Assembly: GCA_040767085.1 (NCBI GenBank)
Contig: JAXGPF010000005.1
Location: 8,343 to 72,342 of the forward strand
DNA length: 64,000 nucleotides
Direction: 5' to 3'
Origin: Kiritimatiellia bacterium
Lineage (GTDB): Bacteria > Verrucomicrobiota > Kiritimatiellia > JAAZAB01
Position numbers and translations under genes: made by a program. The notes beneath the pieces are model-generated. The model searched no databases. It saw nothing but the letters and a program-made list of their open reading frames with translations, and was not told where the DNA came from. Shown piece by piece: positions 1,257 through 22,052 of the stretch (the first letter of the stretch is position 1; each line of letters starts with the position of its first letter).

Positions 1257-1991
1257 TCATGTCTTGACGCAGGTGAAGGTCGCATATTCCTCATCGCCCG
1301 CGTTATACCGGTCCTCATGCACCTCGAAACCTGTTTCGCTTAAAACACGCCTCCAAACATCCATCGAGAACACGCCCATGGTCCAGAGATCGGCCTCAAT
1401 CCGCAGGCGTCTGTGTTCCCGGATGAGATACAGGATCGTCGTTTCGTACTGCTCATCCGTGGGATCGGGGTCATACACGTTCTCTATGAAAACCACGTCC
1501 AATCCGTTCCGCGCGGCCGGGGTGATACTGGTCTTGTTTTGCTGGAACGTCTCAGCCGTCACGTCCGGAGTAACAACCAGGACACCGCCTGGATTCAGAT
1601 GGGCGTGGGCGGTGCGGAACGCCGCCGCCAAGTCCGTCCGGCAGCTCATGTGCGAGATCGCATCGTCCATGAGCACGGCGTCAAAAGCCCGGCCGAGTCG
1701 GCATGTCCGCATATCGTCCTGGACGAACGTGCACTCGGGATTCAGTTCCTTCGCCTGCGCAAGCATGGCGGCGCTCAGATCGACGCCGGTGACGTTGAAC
1801 TGCCGCTTCAGGTTCCAGACGTTCTTCCCGCCCCCGCACCCTATGTCCATCAATGTGGTTGCCGGGCGCCGGGCGTGCCGGCGGATCAACTCCGTGATGT
1901 ATCGGCAGTAGTGCGCGTATTCCGTGGCAGCGTCGCCCCACAATGGCCAAAGCCACGCCAAGTCCGTATAAAGCCGGCAGGTATCATGCAT
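1257..1991 (-). CDS. class I SAM-dependent methyltransferase
   Basis: ORF track 1257..2168 trimmed to internal ATG at 1991 (2003 also possible); motif DIGCGGG. Confidence 0.7.
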   Translation of the reverse strand: MHDTCRLYTDLAWLWPLWGDAATEYAHYCRYITELIRRHARRPATTLMDIGCGGGKNVWNLKRQFNVTGVDLSAAMLAQAKELNPECTFVQDDMRTCRLGRAFDAVLMDDAISHMSCRTDLAAAFRTAHAHLNPGGVLVVTPDVTAETFQQNKTSITPAARNGLDVVFIENVYDPDPTDEQYETTILYLIREHRRLRIEADLWTMGVFSMDVWRRVLSETGFEVHEDRYNAGDEEYATFTCVKT

Positions 1992-2389
1992 ATCTATGCA
2001 CATGCTGAACGTCACAAAGCAAGGATTTGAGCGGCAACGCGCAAACATCATACGTTTGCTTGAGCCAGTATTAAATTCTCGGACGACGTGGAAGTTGTCC
2101 CTACGGAATGATAACGCAAGCAGTTTTGAAATTGGTTCACCAATCTGCAATCCTGCAAATCCGTCCAAATCCCGGTGACTGCCTCACCAACGTCCATATA
2201 AAATTCAGGCCGCTGTTGAACATGGCTTCCGTATCACCGGCTGGCGGTCAAGCAGGCTGCCGCCTCCGCCAGTTATTACCCGATATGTATTTTCACTTGC
2301 TCCGGCAAGTTACCCTGGCAAAGCAACGGAAAACCCCAATAGTTCCAGTGAATCACCTAAGATTGCCTGATAGACTCTGTTAACTGGAG

Positions 2390-2422
2390 AACCGTGAACC
2401 GCTTTAACCGTGAACCGTGCAA
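2390..2422. repeat. tandem direct repeat AACCGTGAACCG x2 plus partial third copy
   Basis: Read directly: copies at 2390..2401 and 2406..2417, immediately 3' of the methyltransferase stop at 2433. Confidence 0.4.
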
Positions 2423-2432
2423 CCGGAACTTC

Positions 2433-3131
2433 TCATCTTTTGCACAAATATGTCCCGATGGCGCCTTCTGCCATCTCTTTGGACAGAACCCGGAAGCCGG
2501 CTCTTTGAAGCAGGCCGTCCAGAATCCAGTCGAAGGTCGAAAACTCCTCCCGGACATGCGTTGCAATTTCATCGCGAAGCTGCGCCCCGCCCATTCCGCC
2601 CAGCTTATCTATCCAGCGCGCGATGTTGGTCTCGACGTCAACCGGATCGAAGATCACGTCGTGGATGTACAAAAGCCCGCCGGGCTTGAGCAGGCCGTGC
2701 ATCCGCGCCAGGGCTATGCCCTTCCAGAAATCCGGCAAATGGTGGAGGGCCATGCTGGTTACAATCGCATCTGCCGGAGCGCCTTTATGCTCGTACGTCA
2801 GGAAACCAGCGTGGCAACAGACGATGTTCTTGAGCCCCGTATTTTCCGCCCGCTGCCGGAGATATTCCAGCATGGGTTGGGAAACATCCACGGCGTAAAC
2901 GCCGGCACAGCGCTGCGCCGCATGGACGGCAAAAGCGCCGGTGCCCGCGCCGAATTCTATCACGACCGACTGCGGCGTGACGGCCAGCGCATCAAGGATG
3001 CGGATGCATTCGGCCGGCGCGTCGCGAAACCGGGCATGGCGGGCATCGTAGGCGGCAACCGCCGCGGTATCCGCATAATCCACGCCGACCTGCCGGTATT
3101 CATCATATTGCCATGTTGTCCGCATGTTCAT
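2433..3131 (-). CDS. class I SAM-dependent methyltransferase
   Basis: ORF track; motif EFGAGTG. Confidence 0.75.
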   Translation of the reverse strand: MNMRTTWQYDEYRQVGVDYADTAAVAAYDARHARFRDAPAECIRILDALAVTPQSVVIEFGAGTGAFAVHAAQRCAGVYAVDVSQPMLEYLRQRAENTGLKNIVCCHAGFLTYEHKGAPADAIVTSMALHHLPDFWKGIALARMHGLLKPGGLLYIHDVIFDPVDVETNIARWIDKLGGMGGAQLRDEIATHVREEFSTFDWILDGLLQRAGFRVLSKEMAEGAIGTYLCKR

Positions 3132-3134
3132 TTT

Positions 3135-3674
3135 CTAATCCAACTTGATCCCCGCATCCCTCCGGATGGATTCAATATCGAGGTCGGCGATCCAGGCTGG
3201 CAGATTCTGCCAGACTTCGTGGAAACCGAATCCGCCCTGGATCATCTCCCGGAGTGCTTCCTCTTTCGTCCAGCCCTGGACGGCGACACGGTACAGCGCG
3301 CACATGGCGCCGGTTCGATCGGCGCCATGTTGACAGTGGACGAGGACGGGGGTGCGTTTGGGGTCGGTGACAATCTGAAGAAACCGGACAATCTCCTTCC
3401 GTTCCGGGTGCCACGCCTTCATGTAGATGTGTTCGTATCCCAGTCCTGTCGCGCCGATTTCGTCCCGATCGGAGTGAAAAGACCGGAGATTCACGATCGT
3501 CAAAACGCCCTGCTGCTTGAGGTTCCGCATGCCCTGCGCGGTGGGCTGGGCGCTGCGGTAGAGGCTGGCGCTGACTGCATGCAGGTTGGAAACGCCCTCC
3601 AGCGTCAAGGGTTGCGCCCATGCTGCCGGCCGGCCGGCAGGCACCTCCCCGGCCATTGTGGCGCTCGCGAGCAT
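3135..3674 (-). CDS. protein-tyrosine / dual-specificity phosphatase, secreted
   Basis: CX5R active site HCQHGADRTG; start moved to ATG 3674 (signal-peptide-like MLASATMAG...) because the track's GTG start at 3710 lies inside the inverted repeat of the adjacent mobile unit. Confidence 0.7.
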   Translation of the reverse strand: MLASATMAGEVPAGRPAAWAQPLTLEGVSNLHAVSASLYRSAQPTAQGMRNLKQQGVLTIVNLRSFHSDRDEIGATGLGYEHIYMKAWHPERKEIVRFLQIVTDPKRTPVLVHCQHGADRTGAMCALYRVAVQGWTKEEALREMIQGGFGFHEVWQNLPAWIADLDIESIRRDAGIKLD

Positions 3675-3703
3675 GAATCCTAACCAGATGTTTTCTAAGA
3701 TCA

Positions 3704-4870
3704 GGGTCACACCTAAATTTAAAACTTAATTTTCACTCCTGGCCCCACATTGGTTGCCGGTTGCAGCATGCGATCTACTTCCGCAACCATGCCTTTCAGT
3801 TGCCGGTCAGATCCTAACAATCCAGCCATCTTCCTCAACTGGCGGCCCACCGCAGCGCCGCTCCCCATCCCCAACACCGCCGCCGCCTCGCGTTGCGTTA
3901 ATCCGGCATGCTTGCAGAGACATCGCGCCGCCACCCCGCGCAATACCGAATTCCGCCGACGCTGGCGGAAACATTCCTCCTGCGTTTCAAACACTTTCGA
4001 TAAAACTGCCAAAACCGTCGTTTTATCCACAGCATTTCTGATATTCCTAAAACGAGCATCTTTCGGCTGCCGGCTTTCCGCCACTCGCTTTTGATACAGC
4101 CCGTCCACCCACGCGCAGAATCTTTCGCCGCCTATGCCGTGCGGCGACGCTTTCAGCGCCGCCATCATACGTTCATCCCCTGTCGAACAGCCCACCTCAA
4201 CAAATTTCCGGTAACGTCCAGCACAAAGACGACGATTTGCGCTCATCTCCGTCAAAATCGGTTCATATTCCACAAATTTAAACGCATTGGCCTTACCGAC
4301 ATAACCCGGATAGCTGCTCCATGGATACGCCCGCAGATATCGCAACCGATCCGCCACTGACTTCTTTCGCAGCGCCCCAACCCGCACCGGATTCAAGTGG
4401 ACATACCGTGAAAGCGCCAGTAGATAAGCATCGCCATCAACCAGTTTCGCCTTATAACGGCCATCAAACAAATGCCCATGCCGATGGTGGCGCAAGTTGA
4501 AATAAACCGTGTAGGCCGTCAAAAGCGACTGCATGAATCTTGAGCAATTCCCGGCCGGGGTCTCGAACACCAAGTGAACATGGTTAACCATCAAAACAAA
4601 CACATACAGCCGGATGTTGTACTCCTCCACACGCGTCGCTAGACGTTCCAGGAAACGCGTGCGATCCGCATCATCGAGGAACAGGCGGTTATGCAGCAGC
4701 CAACTTGAGTCGCCATCGGTTCCCGGCGCAGGTGTCTCTCCCAGCATCCGGGCCATAACGTGGTAAATGGCCCCTTTAAATTCAATCCTTAATTGTCGTG
4801 CCATACACTCAATACTGCATATTTTTGCGAATTTTCGAAATATATTATCTTTTAAATTTAGGTGTGACCC
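3704..4870 (-). mobile_element. IS200-like (Y1 / RAYT-like) transposase unit bounded by inverted repeats
   Basis: GGGTCACACCTAAATTT at 3704..3720 is the exact reverse complement of 4854..4870; imperfect A/T-rich extension inward; single transposase gene inside. Confidence 0.55.
3719..4804 (-). CDS. IS200-like Y1 (HUH) transposase with C-terminal DnaA-like HTH domain
   Basis: ORF track 3719..5167 trimmed to ATG 4804 (MARQLRIEFKGAIYHV...); HxH motif VNHVHLV; C-terminal DnaA domain IV-like HTH. Confidence 0.8.
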   Translation of the reverse strand: MARQLRIEFKGAIYHVMARMLGETPAPGTDGDSSWLLHNRLFLDDADRTRFLERLATRVEEYNIRLYVFVLMVNHVHLVFETPAGNCSRFMQSLLTAYTVYFNLRHHRHGHLFDGRYKAKLVDGDAYLLALSRYVHLNPVRVGALRKKSVADRLRYLRAYPWSSYPGYVGKANAFKFVEYEPILTEMSANRRLCAGRYRKFVEVGCSTGDERMMAALKASPHGIGGERFCAWVDGLYQKRVAESRQPKDARFRNIRNAVDKTTVLAVLSKVFETQEECFRQRRRNSVLRGVAARCLCKHAGLTQREAAAVLGMGSGAAVGRQLRKMAGLLGSDRQLKGMVAEVDRMLQPATNVGPGVKIKF

Positions 4871-6785
4871 CGGATGTAGCTGTAACCCGCGAAAGCATGG
4901 CCTGCCCGTCCAGGCGTAGCGCGCCATCCATGGGATAATCCACCGCGAACCAGATGCTGTATGCCCCGGGCGGCAGCGCCATGTCCTGCACGAGGATGAT
5001 CGGCGCCAAATTTCGCAAAGCCCCCTGGAATGCCGGACGGCAGTTGGCCGGGTTGCCGTCAAACGGCGTCCAGGCCAGCCGATCGTTGCAATAAAACCAG
5101 AGCCCGGCATCATGCGCATACGCCGCCACCCACCAGTCCACCTGTATGCCGGCATAGGGTTCGACATGCAGCATGCTCACGGCCAGCGTCAAGGGATCGC
5201 CGGCGCCCAGGCAAACACCATCCCCGGCCAAGCCATTAACCGTGACCAGCGGCCCGACCGGCGCCAGCGTATCCAGGCGCAAGGCGCAGGCGGTGGCGGC
5301 AGGAGCAACGACGGACAGGAAGTAAGTGCCGGTCGCCGGGCATACCCAGTCCAGTTGGTTCATACTCCAATTGGGCGCGCCGGAATTGGCCGCCGGCGCC
5401 AGGCCCAACGACACATCGGCCGCGGCGCAATCGGCGGTGACGCGGTAATAGACGCCGGCACGAGCGGCCAGGGCGAACCGTTGCACGGCGTCGGGAGCCA
5501 GGTTGACGTTGGTCGCGGCGCCCGGCGAAAGCACCGGCATTCTCGGATATCCCAGCGCCTCGGTTGCGCTGATCGCCGCCGCCAGCAAAGCCTGACCGCA
5601 TTGGGTAAATGAATCCGGCCCGGACTCATCCCAAAACGGCAGGCAAACCGTCACCGACACCTCCGTATCGGGATTGTAGGCCATCAGCGAAAGATATCCC
5701 AGGGTAGCGCCGGTATGGCCGAATCCTATGTCCAGCATGTACGCGCAGCCGCAGCCGTAATTGGCGTTGTGGGGCGCCGTGTTGGTTTGCATGAAACGGA
5801 CCATCTGCGCATCGAGGATGTTTTCGCCCCGCATCATGGTGCGGATGTAGCGGTTGAGCGCGGCCAGGGTGCCGTAGCCATTGCCCTCGGCGACATTCGC
5901 GCTGATGTTGGCGTTGGAAGTGATCAGCGTCGCCCCGCCGGGCCGATATTGGACTCCCGGCACGAACGGCGCCGGCAAGGCCGTGTCCGCGGCCAGGCAT
6001 GGAAAGCGTATGGCGGCCAAAGGCACAGTGGCATTCCCGCCAACTACTTGCTCGTGCAGATAATCGGAATAAGTTTTGGGCGCGCCGCAATAAAGCGAAT
6101 AAACCCGGGCGATGATTTCACCAAGGATGGTGTAACCGGTATCGCTGTAATGATAATTCCGGTCCGGGGCGAAAAACTCCAGGCGGTGCAGGGCAACCTG
6201 CCCGACCAGCTCGGCGGCGGTAAACTGGTGTTCCGGCTCCAGGTCCAGGCGGTATGTGACGTAGGGATCGCCGCCGCAGCCTGGGACGGGATCGTTATCC
6301 ACATCATAGACGCCGGCGCTGTGCCGGAGCAGTTGCGCGATGGTGATCTCGTTCTTGTGCGGGATGTTCCAGTTGGTGTCGGCGGGGAGGTAAGGGATGC
6401 TGCTGCCAGGAATACTGTTCGTGATTTTGGCATGGATGTCCAGCAGGCCCTGGCGCTGCAGGCGCAGGATGGCCGCGGCGGTGAAATTCTTGGTATTGCT
6501 GGCAAACCGGAAAGTGGTGTCGGGAGTCAGAGCCTGATCCGGGGCAGCCGCCGAGGAGGCGAAAAAAGTCTCATTGGAAGTTTCCAGGAATACGCTCAGC
6601 GACGGCACGGGAACGCCCAAGGCAGTTTCCAGGCCCAGGCGCACGGCATGCACCGCGTTGCTGACTTTTTCCGCCGGCGCGGGCGTGGCCGCGCGCGCGC
6701 CGCCGCAGACGCACCCAACCGCCGCCAGCGCCGCCACATAATGCGAGGCACGACAAAAGCAGATTCCCCTGGCAATCCAATGCAT
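4845..6785 (-). CDS. serine hydrolase, beta-lactamase family, secreted, with C-terminal extension
   Basis: ORF track; signal peptide; SxxK motif in FRFASNTKNF; last 7 codons and stop lie inside the right inverted repeat of the Y1 unit. Confidence 0.75.
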   Translation of the reverse strand: MHWIARGICFCRASHYVAALAAVGCVCGGARAATPAPAEKVSNAVHAVRLGLETALGVPVPSLSVFLETSNETFFASSAAAPDQALTPDTTFRFASNTKNFTAAAILRLQRQGLLDIHAKITNSIPGSSIPYLPADTNWNIPHKNEITIAQLLRHSAGVYDVDNDPVPGCGGDPYVTYRLDLEPEHQFTAAELVGQVALHRLEFFAPDRNYHYSDTGYTILGEIIARVYSLYCGAPKTYSDYLHEQVVGGNATVPLAAIRFPCLAADTALPAPFVPGVQYRPGGATLITSNANISANVAEGNGYGTLAALNRYIRTMMRGENILDAQMVRFMQTNTAPHNANYGCGCAYMLDIGFGHTGATLGYLSLMAYNPDTEVSVTVCLPFWDESGPDSFTQCGQALLAAAISATEALGYPRMPVLSPGAATNVNLAPDAVQRFALAARAGVYYRVTADCAAADVSLGLAPAANSGAPNWSMNQLDWVCPATGTYFLSVVAPAATACALRLDTLAPVGPLVTVNGLAGDGVCLGAGDPLTLAVSMLHVEPYAGIQVDWWVAAYAHDAGLWFYCNDRLAWTPFDGNPANCRPAFQGALRNLAPIILVQDMALPPGAYSIWFAVDYPMDGALRLDGQAMLSRVTATSGVTPKFKR

Positions 6786-19094: not shown

Positions 19095-22052
19095 ATGCTG
19101 GAAATTCGCGAGACGGCTGGACGAGGCTTGACGTTGGGCGGCAGCGCCGCTAATAATGCTGCCAGTGATAACCATCGGAATTTAAACGCGGAAGACCATG
19201 ATTCCGCCGCGGGCGCCCGTCCCCGCAGTCCGCGCAAGGGCGCCGGCAACGGACGCAAAGCCAAGGCTATGGGTATTGAGATTAAACCTTTATTCACCGT
19301 TCCCGACCGCCACCCCTGCGATGCGATCGAATGGGAACACCGCAAGGCCGTGATCAAGACGGATAAAGGCGAAGTGGTTTTCGAAGCCGACGACATCGAG
19401 GTGCCGAAAAGCTGGTCGATGCTGGCGACCAACGTGGTCGCCTCCAAGTATTTTTACGGCACGCACGCCACTACGATGCGCGAAAAATCCGTGCGGCAGC
19501 TGGTGCATCGCGTGGCGCGCACCATCGCCGATTGGGGCCTGGAGGACGGCTACTTTGCGACGGCGGACGATGCGGAAGTGTTTTACAAAGAACTGGTGCA
19601 TATTTGCGTCAATCAATACGCCTCCTTCAACAGCCCGGTCTGGTTCAACGTCGGGCTGCACCAGGCTTACGGCGTCAGTTCCAACAGCCGTTCCGCCTAT
19701 TACTGGAACGCCAAGAACGGCCAGATCGAAAAAGCCGAAGACGCCTACAAACACCCTCAGGCTTCCGCTTGTTTCATCCAATCGGTGGCGGACAACATGG
19801 AAGACATCATGCGGCTGGCCAGCGCGGAGGCCATGCTGTTCAAATACGGCTCCGGCACCGGCACGGACTTGAGCACCCTGCGCAGCAGCCGCGAAAAACT
19901 TTCCGGCGGCGGCACGCCTTCCGGCCCTCTGAGTTTCATGCGGGTGTTCGACCAGGTGGCGGCGGTGATCAAGTCCGGCGGCAAAACCCGCCGCGCGGCC
20001 AAGATGCAAAGCCTCAAGGTGCAGCATCCGGACATCATGGATTTCATCAACTGCAAAGTGGCAGAGGAGAAAAAGGCGCGGGTGTTGATTCAGTCCGGCT
20101 ATGACGGCTCCTTCAACGGCGACGCTTATTCCTCGGTGATGTTCCAGAACGCCAACCTTTCCGTGCGCGTAACGGACGATTTCCTCAACGCCGTGCAGGC
20201 CGGCGCCGTCTGGCACACCCGCGCCATCACCACGGGCGACATCGTGGAAGTGCTGGACGCGCGGCAGGTCATGCGCAGCATCGCGGAAGCGGCGCATTTC
20301 TGCGGCGATCCCGGGCTGCAATACGACACTACGATCAACCGCTGGCACACCTGTCCTAACAGCGGCGCGATCAACGCCAGCAATCCCTGTTCGGAATACA
20401 TGTTCGTGGACAACAGCGCCTGCAACCTGTCTTCGATCAACCTGATGAAATTTTCCGACGAGCGCCAGGTGTTCGACATCCGGCAATTCCAGCACGTGGC
20501 GCGCATCATGATCATCGCCCAGGAAATCCTGGTGGACCGCGGCAGTTACCCGACGCGCGAGATCGCGGAAAACTCGCACCGTTTCCGTCCGCTGGGACTG
20601 GGCTATGCCAACCTGGGGGCGCTGATCATGAGCCTGGGCCTGCCTTACGACAGCAAGGACGGCCGTTCCTTCGCCTCAGCCGTGACCGCCCTGATGACCG
20701 GCGCCGCCTACTCCGCTTCGATTGAACTGGCCGGGGTCAAGGGCGCCTTCGACGCATATGCCGCCAACCGCGAGCCGTTCAACCGCGTGATCGGCATGCA
20801 CCGGGACGCCCTGGGACACGTCCCGGCCACTGCCAGCAATGGCCCCATTTTACGGGAAGCCCAGGCGGTCTGGGAGCATGTGCACGCCGCCGGGCTGGCG
20901 CATGACTTCCGCAACGCCCAGGTTACGGTCCTGGCGCCCACGGGCACCATCGGCTTCATGATGGACTGCGACACCACGGGCGTCGAGCCCGATATCGCGC
21001 TGGTCAAGTATAAACAATTGGCCGGCGGGGGGATGTTCAAAATCGCCAACCAATCGCTTGCCATGGCGCTCAAGCGCCTGGGCTACACGCCGGCCCAGGT
21101 CCAGGCGATCATCGCGCATGTGGATAAAACCGACACCATTGAAGACGCCCCGGACCTGGACGAAGCGCATCTGCCCGTGTTCGACTGCGCTTTCAAGCCG
21201 CGGAACGGCAAGCGCTGCATCAAATACCAGGCCCACCTGCAAATGATGGCGGCGGTACAACCCTTCCTTTCCGGCGCCATCAGCAAAACCATCAACATGC
21301 CCGGCAACGCCACTGTCGAAGATGTGCTGCAGGCGTACATGGACGGCTGGAAACTGGGCTTGAAAGCCGTCGCCATCTACCGTGACGGTTCCAAGGGCAT
21401 CCAGCCGGTCAGCACCGCCCGCGCGGACGAGGCGGCGGTGACCGCGGAAACGCCCGCGGCGGCCGCCGCCAACAAACCTTTCCGGCGCCGCATGCCGGCG
21501 ACGCGCCAGTCCATCACGCACAAGTTCGAAGTGGCCGGCCACCAGGGCTACCTGACGGTCGGCTTGTATGAGGATGGCGCGCCGGGCGAACTATTCATCA
21601 CCATGGCCAAGGAAGGCAGCACGGTCGGCGGCATCATGGACGCCTTCGGCACGGCGATTTCGATGTGCCTGCAATACGGGGTGCCGATCAGCACCCTCAT
21701 CGACAAGTTCACTCACAGTCGTTTCGAACCCAGCGGATTCACCAAGAACCCGGAAATTCCGTTTGCCAAGTCGCTGGTGGATTACATTTTCCGCTGGATG
21801 GCCATGACTTTCCCCGACGGCCACTCCAAGAACGGGCATTATGCCGCCGCGCCCGTGACCGCCGCTGAACCGGCGGCGCCGGAAACGGATGCCGCGGAAA
21901 ATCCGGCGTCCGCCGCCGCGCCGCGCCTGGACAGCCAGTTCATGCACTTCCAGGAAGATGCGCCGGTCTGCGATCAATGCGGCGCCATTACCGTACGCAA
22001 CGGCACCTGCTACCGCTGCTTCGTCTGCGGCAATTCCATGGGTTGTTCTTGA
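19095..22052 (+). CDS. nrdJ: class II (adenosylcobalamin-dependent) ribonucleotide reductase
   Basis: ORF track; AGGAG SD 6 nt upstream of ATG; large RNR catalytic core with C-terminal CxxC...CxxC tail. Confidence 0.9.
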   Translation: MLEIRETAGRGLTLGGSAANNAASDNHRNLNAEDHDSAAGARPRSPRKGAGNGRKAKAMGIEIKPLFTVPDRHPCDAIEWEHRKAVIKTDKGEVVFEADDIEVPKSWSMLATNVVASKYFYGTHATTMREKSVRQLVHRVARTIADWGLEDGYFATADDAEVFYKELVHICVNQYASFNSPVWFNVGLHQAYGVSSNSRSAYYWNAKNGQIEKAEDAYKHPQASACFIQSVADNMEDIMRLASAEAMLFKYGSGTGTDLSTLRSSREKLSGGGTPSGPLSFMRVFDQVAAVIKSGGKTRRAAKMQSLKVQHPDIMDFINCKVAEEKKARVLIQSGYDGSFNGDAYSSVMFQNANLSVRVTDDFLNAVQAGAVWHTRAITTGDIVEVLDARQVMRSIAEAAHFCGDPGLQYDTTINRWHTCPNSGAINASNPCSEYMFVDNSACNLSSINLMKFSDERQVFDIRQFQHVARIMIIAQEILVDRGSYPTREIAENSHRFRPLGLGYANLGALIMSLGLPYDSKDGRSFASAVTALMTGAAYSASIELAGVKGAFDAYAANREPFNRVIGMHRDALGHVPATASNGPILREAQAVWEHVHAAGLAHDFRNAQVTVLAPTGTIGFMMDCDTTGVEPDIALVKYKQLAGGGMFKIANQSLAMALKRLGYTPAQVQAIIAHVDKTDTIEDAPDLDEAHLPVFDCAFKPRNGKRCIKYQAHLQMMAAVQPFLSGAISKTINMPGNATVEDVLQAYMDGWKLGLKAVAIYRDGSKGIQPVSTARADEAAVTAETPAAAAANKPFRRRMPATRQSITHKFEVAGHQGYLTVGLYEDGAPGELFITMAKEGSTVGGIMDAFGTAISMCLQYGVPISTLIDKFTHSRFEPSGFTKNPEIPFAKSLVDYIFRWMAMTFPDGHSKNGHYAAAPVTAAEPAAPETDAAENPASAAAPRLDSQFMHFQEDAPVCDQCGAITVRNGTCYRCFVCGNSMGCS

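Follow-up and report, generated by a model that had tools for sequence, protein, structure and literature searches.

A probable TIRtron with inverted repeats that run into neighbouring reading frames in an uncultured Verrucomicrobiota bacterium

What kind of unit is a lone HUH/Y1 transposase gene that stands between perfect inverted repeats and is wedged between the ends of two other genes? The arrangement occurs in a 64-kb stretch of DNA, hereafter the window, and a sequence-only reading had likened it to a RAYT/REP-type system whose insertion might have rewritten the 3' end of a neighbouring hydrolase gene. Our analysis indicates that the unit is very probably a TIRtron, that is, a RAYT-like tyrosine transposase gene bracketed by the inverted repeats of its own family, and a long-standing single-copy resident. 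The arrangement is already known and named, if little studied, and the unit is an ordinary member of that class, not a new kind of system. The terms TIRYT and TIRtron were introduced for RAYT-like genes flanked by long inverted repeats, many of which have GGGGWSAS in common, placed about equally far from the gene, and moderately abundant repeat families of this kind were found in some genomes (Di Nocera, De Gregorio & Rocco, 2013, BMC Genomics 14:522; PMC3733652). A later classification placed 20 of 26 TIRYTs in TnpA-REP subclass 2.1, which is equated with RAYT group 1 of Bertels et al., 2017, and is marked by a C-terminal tail resembling Bac_DnaA_C, HTH_23 or HTH_28, by a lack of REP-like structures, by low copy number and by divergent copies within a genome (Quentin et al., 2018, BMC Genomics 19:475; PMC6006769). 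A literature search for experimental work on TIRYTs found none.

The sequence GGGTCACACCTAAATTT at 3704–3720 is the exact reverse complement of 4854–4870, as the sequence-only reading had stated, and a repeat finder extends these 17 perfectly paired nucleotides inward to arms of 27 nt with 93% complementarity (3704–3730 and 4844–4870). When up to three mismatches are allowed, the 17-mer matches the 64-kb window at two sites only, the arms themselves, against 0.03 matches expected, and none of 100 shuffled sequences reached two matches. This result, together with the conservation of the repeat across the family (see below), rules out a chance inverted repeat. The upstream repeat, on the 5' side of the gene (4844–4870, minus strand), reads GGGTCACACCTAAATTTAAAAGATAAT on the gene strand and is preceded by a fourth G at 4871, with weak similarity that may run on to about 4876. 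The downstream repeat (3704–3730, plus strand) reads GGGTCACACCTAAATTTAAAACTTAAT when followed inward and holds both the stop codon of the transposase gene (3719–3721) and a GTG codon of the adjoining phosphatase gene (3708–3710). The ends of the element, GGGGTCAC upstream and AGGGTCAC downstream, both fit GGGGWSAS and lie in the 27-nt arms. Homology with the hydrolase genes of two related genomes, L001 (CAYXEK01, the closest relative genome) and L086, stops at 4876, six bases beyond the 17-mer, and on the phosphatase side homology with L001 picks up again at 3692. Taken with the related elements described below, these breakpoints suggest that the true ends lie 1–7 nt beyond the 17-mers, with the fourth G at 4871 included, at about 4876 upstream and possibly near 3698 downstream. 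An A/T-rich spacer (4805–4843, minus strand) separates the upstream repeat from the ATG of the transposase gene. One promoter-like match is found there, with a −35 element GTCACA (4868–4863) inside the repeat core and a −10 element TATATT ending at 4839; it is a match to consensus only, and such matches occur in about the number expected by chance.

The arms enclose a single minus-strand gene (3719–4804; ATG 4804–4802, stop 3721–3719), which encodes a 361-aa HUH/Y1 tyrosine transposase-like protein. Because all homologs open with MAR(Q/H)LR, the ATG at 4804 is taken as the true start, and the 482-aa frame of a mechanical ORF list is an upstream read-through of the same gene. The N-terminal catalytic core (about residues 1–150; 4355–4804, minus strand) was delimited with Pfam and Foldseek. 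It contains a Pfam Y1_Tnp match over residues 42–136 (E=1.8e-9), the HUH motif NHVHLV (H75, H77) and the class-2 tyrosine motif RYVHLNP (Y134). In an alignment of 32 homologs that are 52–76% identical to the query, N74, H75 and H77 of the HUH motif are invariant, as are Y134, V135, H136, L137, N138 and P139 of YVHLNP. The spacing Y---NP is the signature of RAYT-like class 2, where IS200 has Y----Q (PMC6006769). The N-terminal part of the AlphaFold model is of low confidence (mean pLDDT 60.9 for the catalytic half); in Foldseek it matches IS608 TnpA, ISDra2 TnpA and the E. coli RAYT (4er8), each with a probability of 1.00. The best NCBIfam match of the protein is REP_Tyr_transpos, which scores 46.3 bits where the cutoff is 80. 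Homologs, about 350 aa long, number more than 3,300, and the named ones come from Verrucomicrobia, Lentisphaerae and related groups.

The C-terminal region (about residues 255–352; 3749–4042, minus strand) yields no Pfam match to Bac_DnaA_C even at E≤1, so a test at the level of the fold was needed. The AlphaFold model is confident here (pLDDT 80–95 over residues 261–350) and superposes on the DNA-binding domain of M. tuberculosis DnaA (3pvp_B) with a target-normalised TM score of 0.80 and an rmsd of 2.0 Å over 94 columns. Similarity to DnaA is not significant at the level of sequence, where the profile match to domain IV of DnaA 8btg (residues 353–445) has E=0.44, and HTH_23 is matched in two of the 32 homologs. 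As modelled, the C-terminus of the transposase is a DnaA-domain-IV-like DNA-binding fold; the DnaA-like helix-turn-helix that had been read from the sequence is thus borne out structurally, with weaker support from sequence comparison. The DnaA-box consensus TTATCCACA is itself found three times in the window (4023–4031, 6295–6303 and 21119–21127), against 0.21 expected, and 0 of 100 shuffles reach three; the copy in the hydrolase gene is kept in L001 and L086. DnaA boxes were rejected as binding sites of the transposase, the copy inside its own gene (4023–4031) not being conserved in relatives. The repeat core does not resemble a DnaA box (PMC6006769), an objection that also stands against the binding mechanism proposed below.

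The unit therefore combines an HUH/Y1 core, the Y---NP motif, a long protein with a C-terminal HTH-type fold and GGGGWSAS inverted repeats, the features by which TIRYTs are recognised. It shares with described TIRtrons the fixed distance between repeats and gene, a 3' repeat that lies over the gene end, the lack of REP hairpins, the low copy number, here one in 64 kb, and, among its relatives, the divergence of copies within a genome. It differs from them in its host, an uncultured Verrucomicrobiota bacterium, and in having both repeats fused to neighbouring reading frames. On the basis of motifs, architecture and repeats, the protein probably belongs to subclass 2.1, subgroup 2.1.2.

We then asked how far this arrangement is shared, using 80 loci of relatives (40–78% protein identity) from species-representative genomes, which with the window make 81 loci. 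These come mostly from Verrucomicrobiota, Lentisphaerota/Victivallales, Kiritimatiellia and Planctomycetota, with a few from other groups. Nearly all loci with flanks present have inverted repeats that open with GGGTCA-NN-CC, most often as GGGTCAGCCC. A loosely defined core of this type is found at both ends in 57 of the 81 loci; of the remainder, most run into a contig end or have a core that has degenerated. The left core lies 56–68 nt upstream of the ATG in nearly all of them, and the right repeat ends 15–45 nt past the transposase stop, so that it often overlaps the end of the gene. When the left and right ends of one element are compared, agreement is 0.9–1.0 at positions 1–14 and falls to background after about position 27; outward it is 0.67 at position −1, corresponding to the fourth G, and about 0.45 at −2 to −4. 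Down to 40% protein identity, then, relatives keep both the repeat core and its distance from the gene. The CACACC variant of the core is seen in the window and in L001 only. To our knowledge this PVC-wide clade, with its more than 3,300 homologs and nearly invariant GGGTCAGCCC core, is not among the 26 published TIRYTs.

The ends of the related elements display several kinds of local rearrangement. In L001 a 15-nt unit, TGACCCCCAATGCTT, is repeated 3.9 times in tandem directly outside the right repeat (5103–5160), followed by a further degenerate copy; the unit consists of the repeat tip and its outward flank. A similar four-fold array of tips is found at the 3' end of a different element, L088 (about 1135–1215). 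Extra cores in direct orientation lie just beyond the element ends in L015 (3631–3952), where there are up to six left cores, in L038 (3768–3946), in L006 (5097–5126), and in L022, L028, L034, L078 and L080, the last of these with 56 nt of its left end duplicated exactly. Solo cores away from elements are rare in the related loci. Inspection of the 14-nt outside flanks of about 60 elements with both ends revealed no direct repeats of the kind left by target-site duplication, and the bases that do match there are outward extensions of the inverted repeat. In L087 (3539–4721) the right repeat is truncated, reading GGGCTGA and then unrelated sequence, and a gene for an IS110-family transposase (DEDD_Tnp_IS110) starts 160 nt downstream, so the tip may have been disrupted by insertion of an IS110 element.

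In the window both repeats are joined to host genes, and the overlaps described by the sequence-only reading are all present: the transposase stop and the phosphatase GTG lie in the low-coordinate arm, and the last seven codons and the stop of a gene for a beta-lactamase-family serine hydrolase (4845–6785, minus strand) lie in the high-coordinate arm. Comparison with orthologs assigns the C-terminal tail (G)VTPKFKR and the TAA stop of the hydrolase (4845–4871, minus strand) to the repeat. Orthologs that are 87% identical end in ...RVTATVGR* and paralogs in ...TVAVGH* or ...TVIVQP*, whereas the window protein ends in ...TATSGVTPKFKR (over a longer stretch, ...RVTATSGVTPKFKR). Since homology stops at 4876, the native stop codon is gone and the frame runs on into the repeat, which adds a net six residues and a stop. 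The proposal that insertion rewrote the hydrolase end therefore stands as far as the altered end is concerned. The change is small, and it is not attributable to the insertion event itself, because L001 has a related element in the same interval and an intact native hydrolase end.

On the other side, the gene for a DSP-type protein tyrosine phosphatase (3135–3710, minus strand) has a candidate GTG start at 3710–3708, 8 nt after the transposase stop. Homologs of the phosphatase have a signal peptide of about 20 residues (MK, a hydrophobic stretch, then AGE), and this GTG is the only ATG, GTG or TTG start that keeps it, giving a product that begins MTLILENIWLGF...; gene callers in other records start the protein at internal ATGs, M13 or M19. 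The GTG inside the repeat is the probable start. The signal peptide so encoded (3672–3710) is without the usual Lys or Arg near its start, reading MTLILENIW... where homologs have MK..., and this copy may be poorly exported or translated from another start. The hydrolase, transposase, phosphatase and a methyltransferase gene are co-oriented and separated by gaps of 40, 8 and 3 nt, from which read-through transcription is a reasonable inference, and the four genes are probably co-transcribed.

The corresponding interval in L001 is more spacious. The element there, which has the same CACACC variant and lies between the same hydrolase and phosphatase genes, is 2.3 kb from the hydrolase gene, a span that includes a transglutaminase-like gene (1832–3220, minus strand), and 0.5 kb from the phosphatase gene, a span that includes a 153-aa hydrophobic ORF (5156–5617). 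Neither the transglutaminase-like gene nor the 153-aa ORF has a counterpart in the 64-kb window. In a third genome, L086, the hydrolase gene is likewise followed by a transglutaminase-like gene. The flush junctions of the window most likely arose when intervening DNA, still present in L001, was lost on either side of the element; the comparison does not polarise deletion here against gain in the relatives, L001 and L086 resembling each other slightly more than either resembles the window. The microhomology seen at the two junctions, GGGG beside the hydrolase and TGTGA beside the start of the phosphatase, is too short to interpret. An empty site was not found among relatives: the two 87% hydrolase orthologs (L001 and L086) are followed by the transglutaminase-like gene, and hydrolase homologs at 59–61% identity are paralogs in other contexts.

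Whether such a unit still moves is the point at which the TIRtron reading meets its closest rival, in which the gene is domesticated and immobile, is kept for a host function, and has repeats that serve as operators or binding sites for its own HTH domain and not as transposon ends. The two explanations overlap and differ only on whether the window copy can still move; we consider immobility possible but doubtful. The local evidence points to residence. The element is a single copy in the 64-kb window. In L001, where the flanking genes have diverged to a dS of about 0.3 (0.27–0.31), a related element is found in the same interval. The transposase gene has a dN/dS of 0.24 against L001, similar to the 0.21–0.32 of its neighbours, and a 99%-identical strain from another sample has an identical junction between repeat and phosphatase gene. 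These observations suggest that the element has probably been in place for a long time, its gene under purifying selection. The dS of the transposase gene is 0.57, twice that of the flanks, so the elements of the window and L001 may not be strict orthologs. Copies within one MAG are 67–84% identical, which is evidence of slow turnover; old and divergent copies within genomes are also known for RAYT-like class 2 genes (PMC6006769).

Elsewhere in the family there is evidence of movement. Over a stretch of 906 nt, the element of L049 (989–1894; a Terrimicrobiaceae MAG) matches that of L080 (3929–4834; from a MAG labelled Akkermansia) at 99.8% identity, although the two MAGs are assigned to different families and the flanks are unrelated. 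Their homology begins sharply 7 nt outside the GGGG, and the 56-nt left-end duplication of L080 starts at the same base. The pair indicates recent transfer or transposition, or else mis-binning. A further element is common, at 93% identity, to MAGs of different phyla, L052 (Caldilineaceae) and L059 (Sedimentisphaerales). The patchy distribution over phyla, the invariant catalytic HUH and Tyr residues, and the end duplications and repeat-tip arrays, which suggest ongoing processing of DNA at the ends, likewise argue against a purely domesticated gene. Logan contigs of 1.15 kb that break inside or at the repeats were set aside as proof of multiple copies, since the inverted repeat itself could break a de Bruijn graph. 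Carriage by phage or plasmid was also rejected: no viral relatives were found, and all plasmid-borne relatives are below 35% identity.

A second alternative, suggested by the sequence-only reading, is a RAYT/REP system (a REPtron), in which a single-copy RAYT spreads short palindromic REP or REPIN sequences and the flanking repeats are members of that population. The protein does belong to the RAYT-like clade, and this part of the proposal holds. In favour of a REPtron are the best NCBIfam match, the class-2 Y---NP motif, the small clusters of extra repeat cores beside the element in several relatives, and the moderately abundant repeat families of some genomes (PMC3733652). The NCBIfam score nevertheless falls below the cutoff, and the repeats do not behave as REPs. 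The arms at 3704–3730 and 4844–4870 lack self-complementarity and hence are not palindromic, GTAG-tagged REPs, and single-stranded folding of both ends on both strands found no hairpin better than in shuffled sequence (z-scores −0.05 to +0.79). No further copies of the repeat are present in the 64-kb window, where three other GGGTCA-NN-CC matches equal the chance expectation. A scan of a very large metagenome contig set with the exact 17-mer returned 15 isolated matches with unrelated continuations, none beside a Y1 gene. These two results, from the 64-kb window and the metagenome contigs, also speak against a genome-wide repeat unlinked to the gene. A 20-mer that contains the window 17-mer, GGGTCACACCTAAATTTTCC, is common to the unrelated metagenome contigs L096, L100 and L106, with no transposase seen nearby. 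The E. coli TnpA-REP/RAYT with its REP-BIME (PDB: 4ER8; subclass 2.2) resembles the window unit in its HUH/Y1 fold, Y---NP motif, inverted flanking sequences, low copy number and vertical persistence. It is, however, a protein of about 165 aa without the HTH tail, against 361 aa here, and its flanks are GTAG-tagged palindromic REPs in hundreds of copies, where the window has non-palindromic 27-nt repeats and no dispersed family in 64 kb. A REPtron is accordingly very unlikely.

A classical IS200/IS605 insertion sequence is barely conceivable, and was already discounted by the sequence-only reading: the Pfam Y1_Tnp match and a fold like that of IS608 and ISDra2 TnpA speak for it, but elements of that family lack terminal inverted repeats and have subterminal hairpins, a transposase of about 130–150 aa with Y----Q, often a tnpB gene, and identical multicopy elements, whereas the window unit has true 27-nt terminal inverted repeats without subterminal hairpins, a 361-aa protein with Y---NP (PMC6006769) and no tnpB, and no near-identical copies were found within one genome among the sampled loci.

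Returning to the TIRtron reading, we infer that TIRYTs bind, cleave and mobilise DNA at their repeats, and the architecture of the protein suggests how this could be done. The C-terminal helix-turn-helix domain would bind the repeat boxes in double-stranded form, and the HUH/Tyr core would nick a single DNA strand and rejoin it, either at the GGGG tips or just beyond them. Such nicking and rejoining could produce rare movement of the whole 1.17–1.18-kb unit, and it could also produce local duplications of the ends and deletions of adjacent DNA. A bolder and speculative proposal, which we consider rather unlikely, is that the TIRtrons of the PVC clade are an active, autonomous and uncatalogued family of insertion sequences, in which the DnaA-domain-IV-like domain guides a single-strand HUH/Y1 nuclease to double-stranded repeats. 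The tip arrays and duplicated ends would then be footprints of nicking and rejoining, and the flush fusions would be element-mediated adjacent deletions that halted on reaching sequence under selection in the neighbouring genes.

The TIRYT name dates from 2013 and the classification from 2018, and the question at stake is whether they move and how a nuclease that acts on single strands uses inverted repeats. The survey offers material for this question: a large clade in the PVC group whose 10-nt core hardly varies and keeps its distance from the gene, two elements of 99.8% identity whose unrelated flanks mark out where the element ends, and repeat tips that have repeatedly been duplicated in tandem. 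What goes beyond the literature is this survey of the PVC clade and, locally, the fusion of both repeats to host reading frames. The window thus offers a clear case of a resident element whose ends have been absorbed into two host reading frames and, probably, into an operon, with consequences for how the C-terminus of the hydrolase and the start of the phosphatase are annotated.
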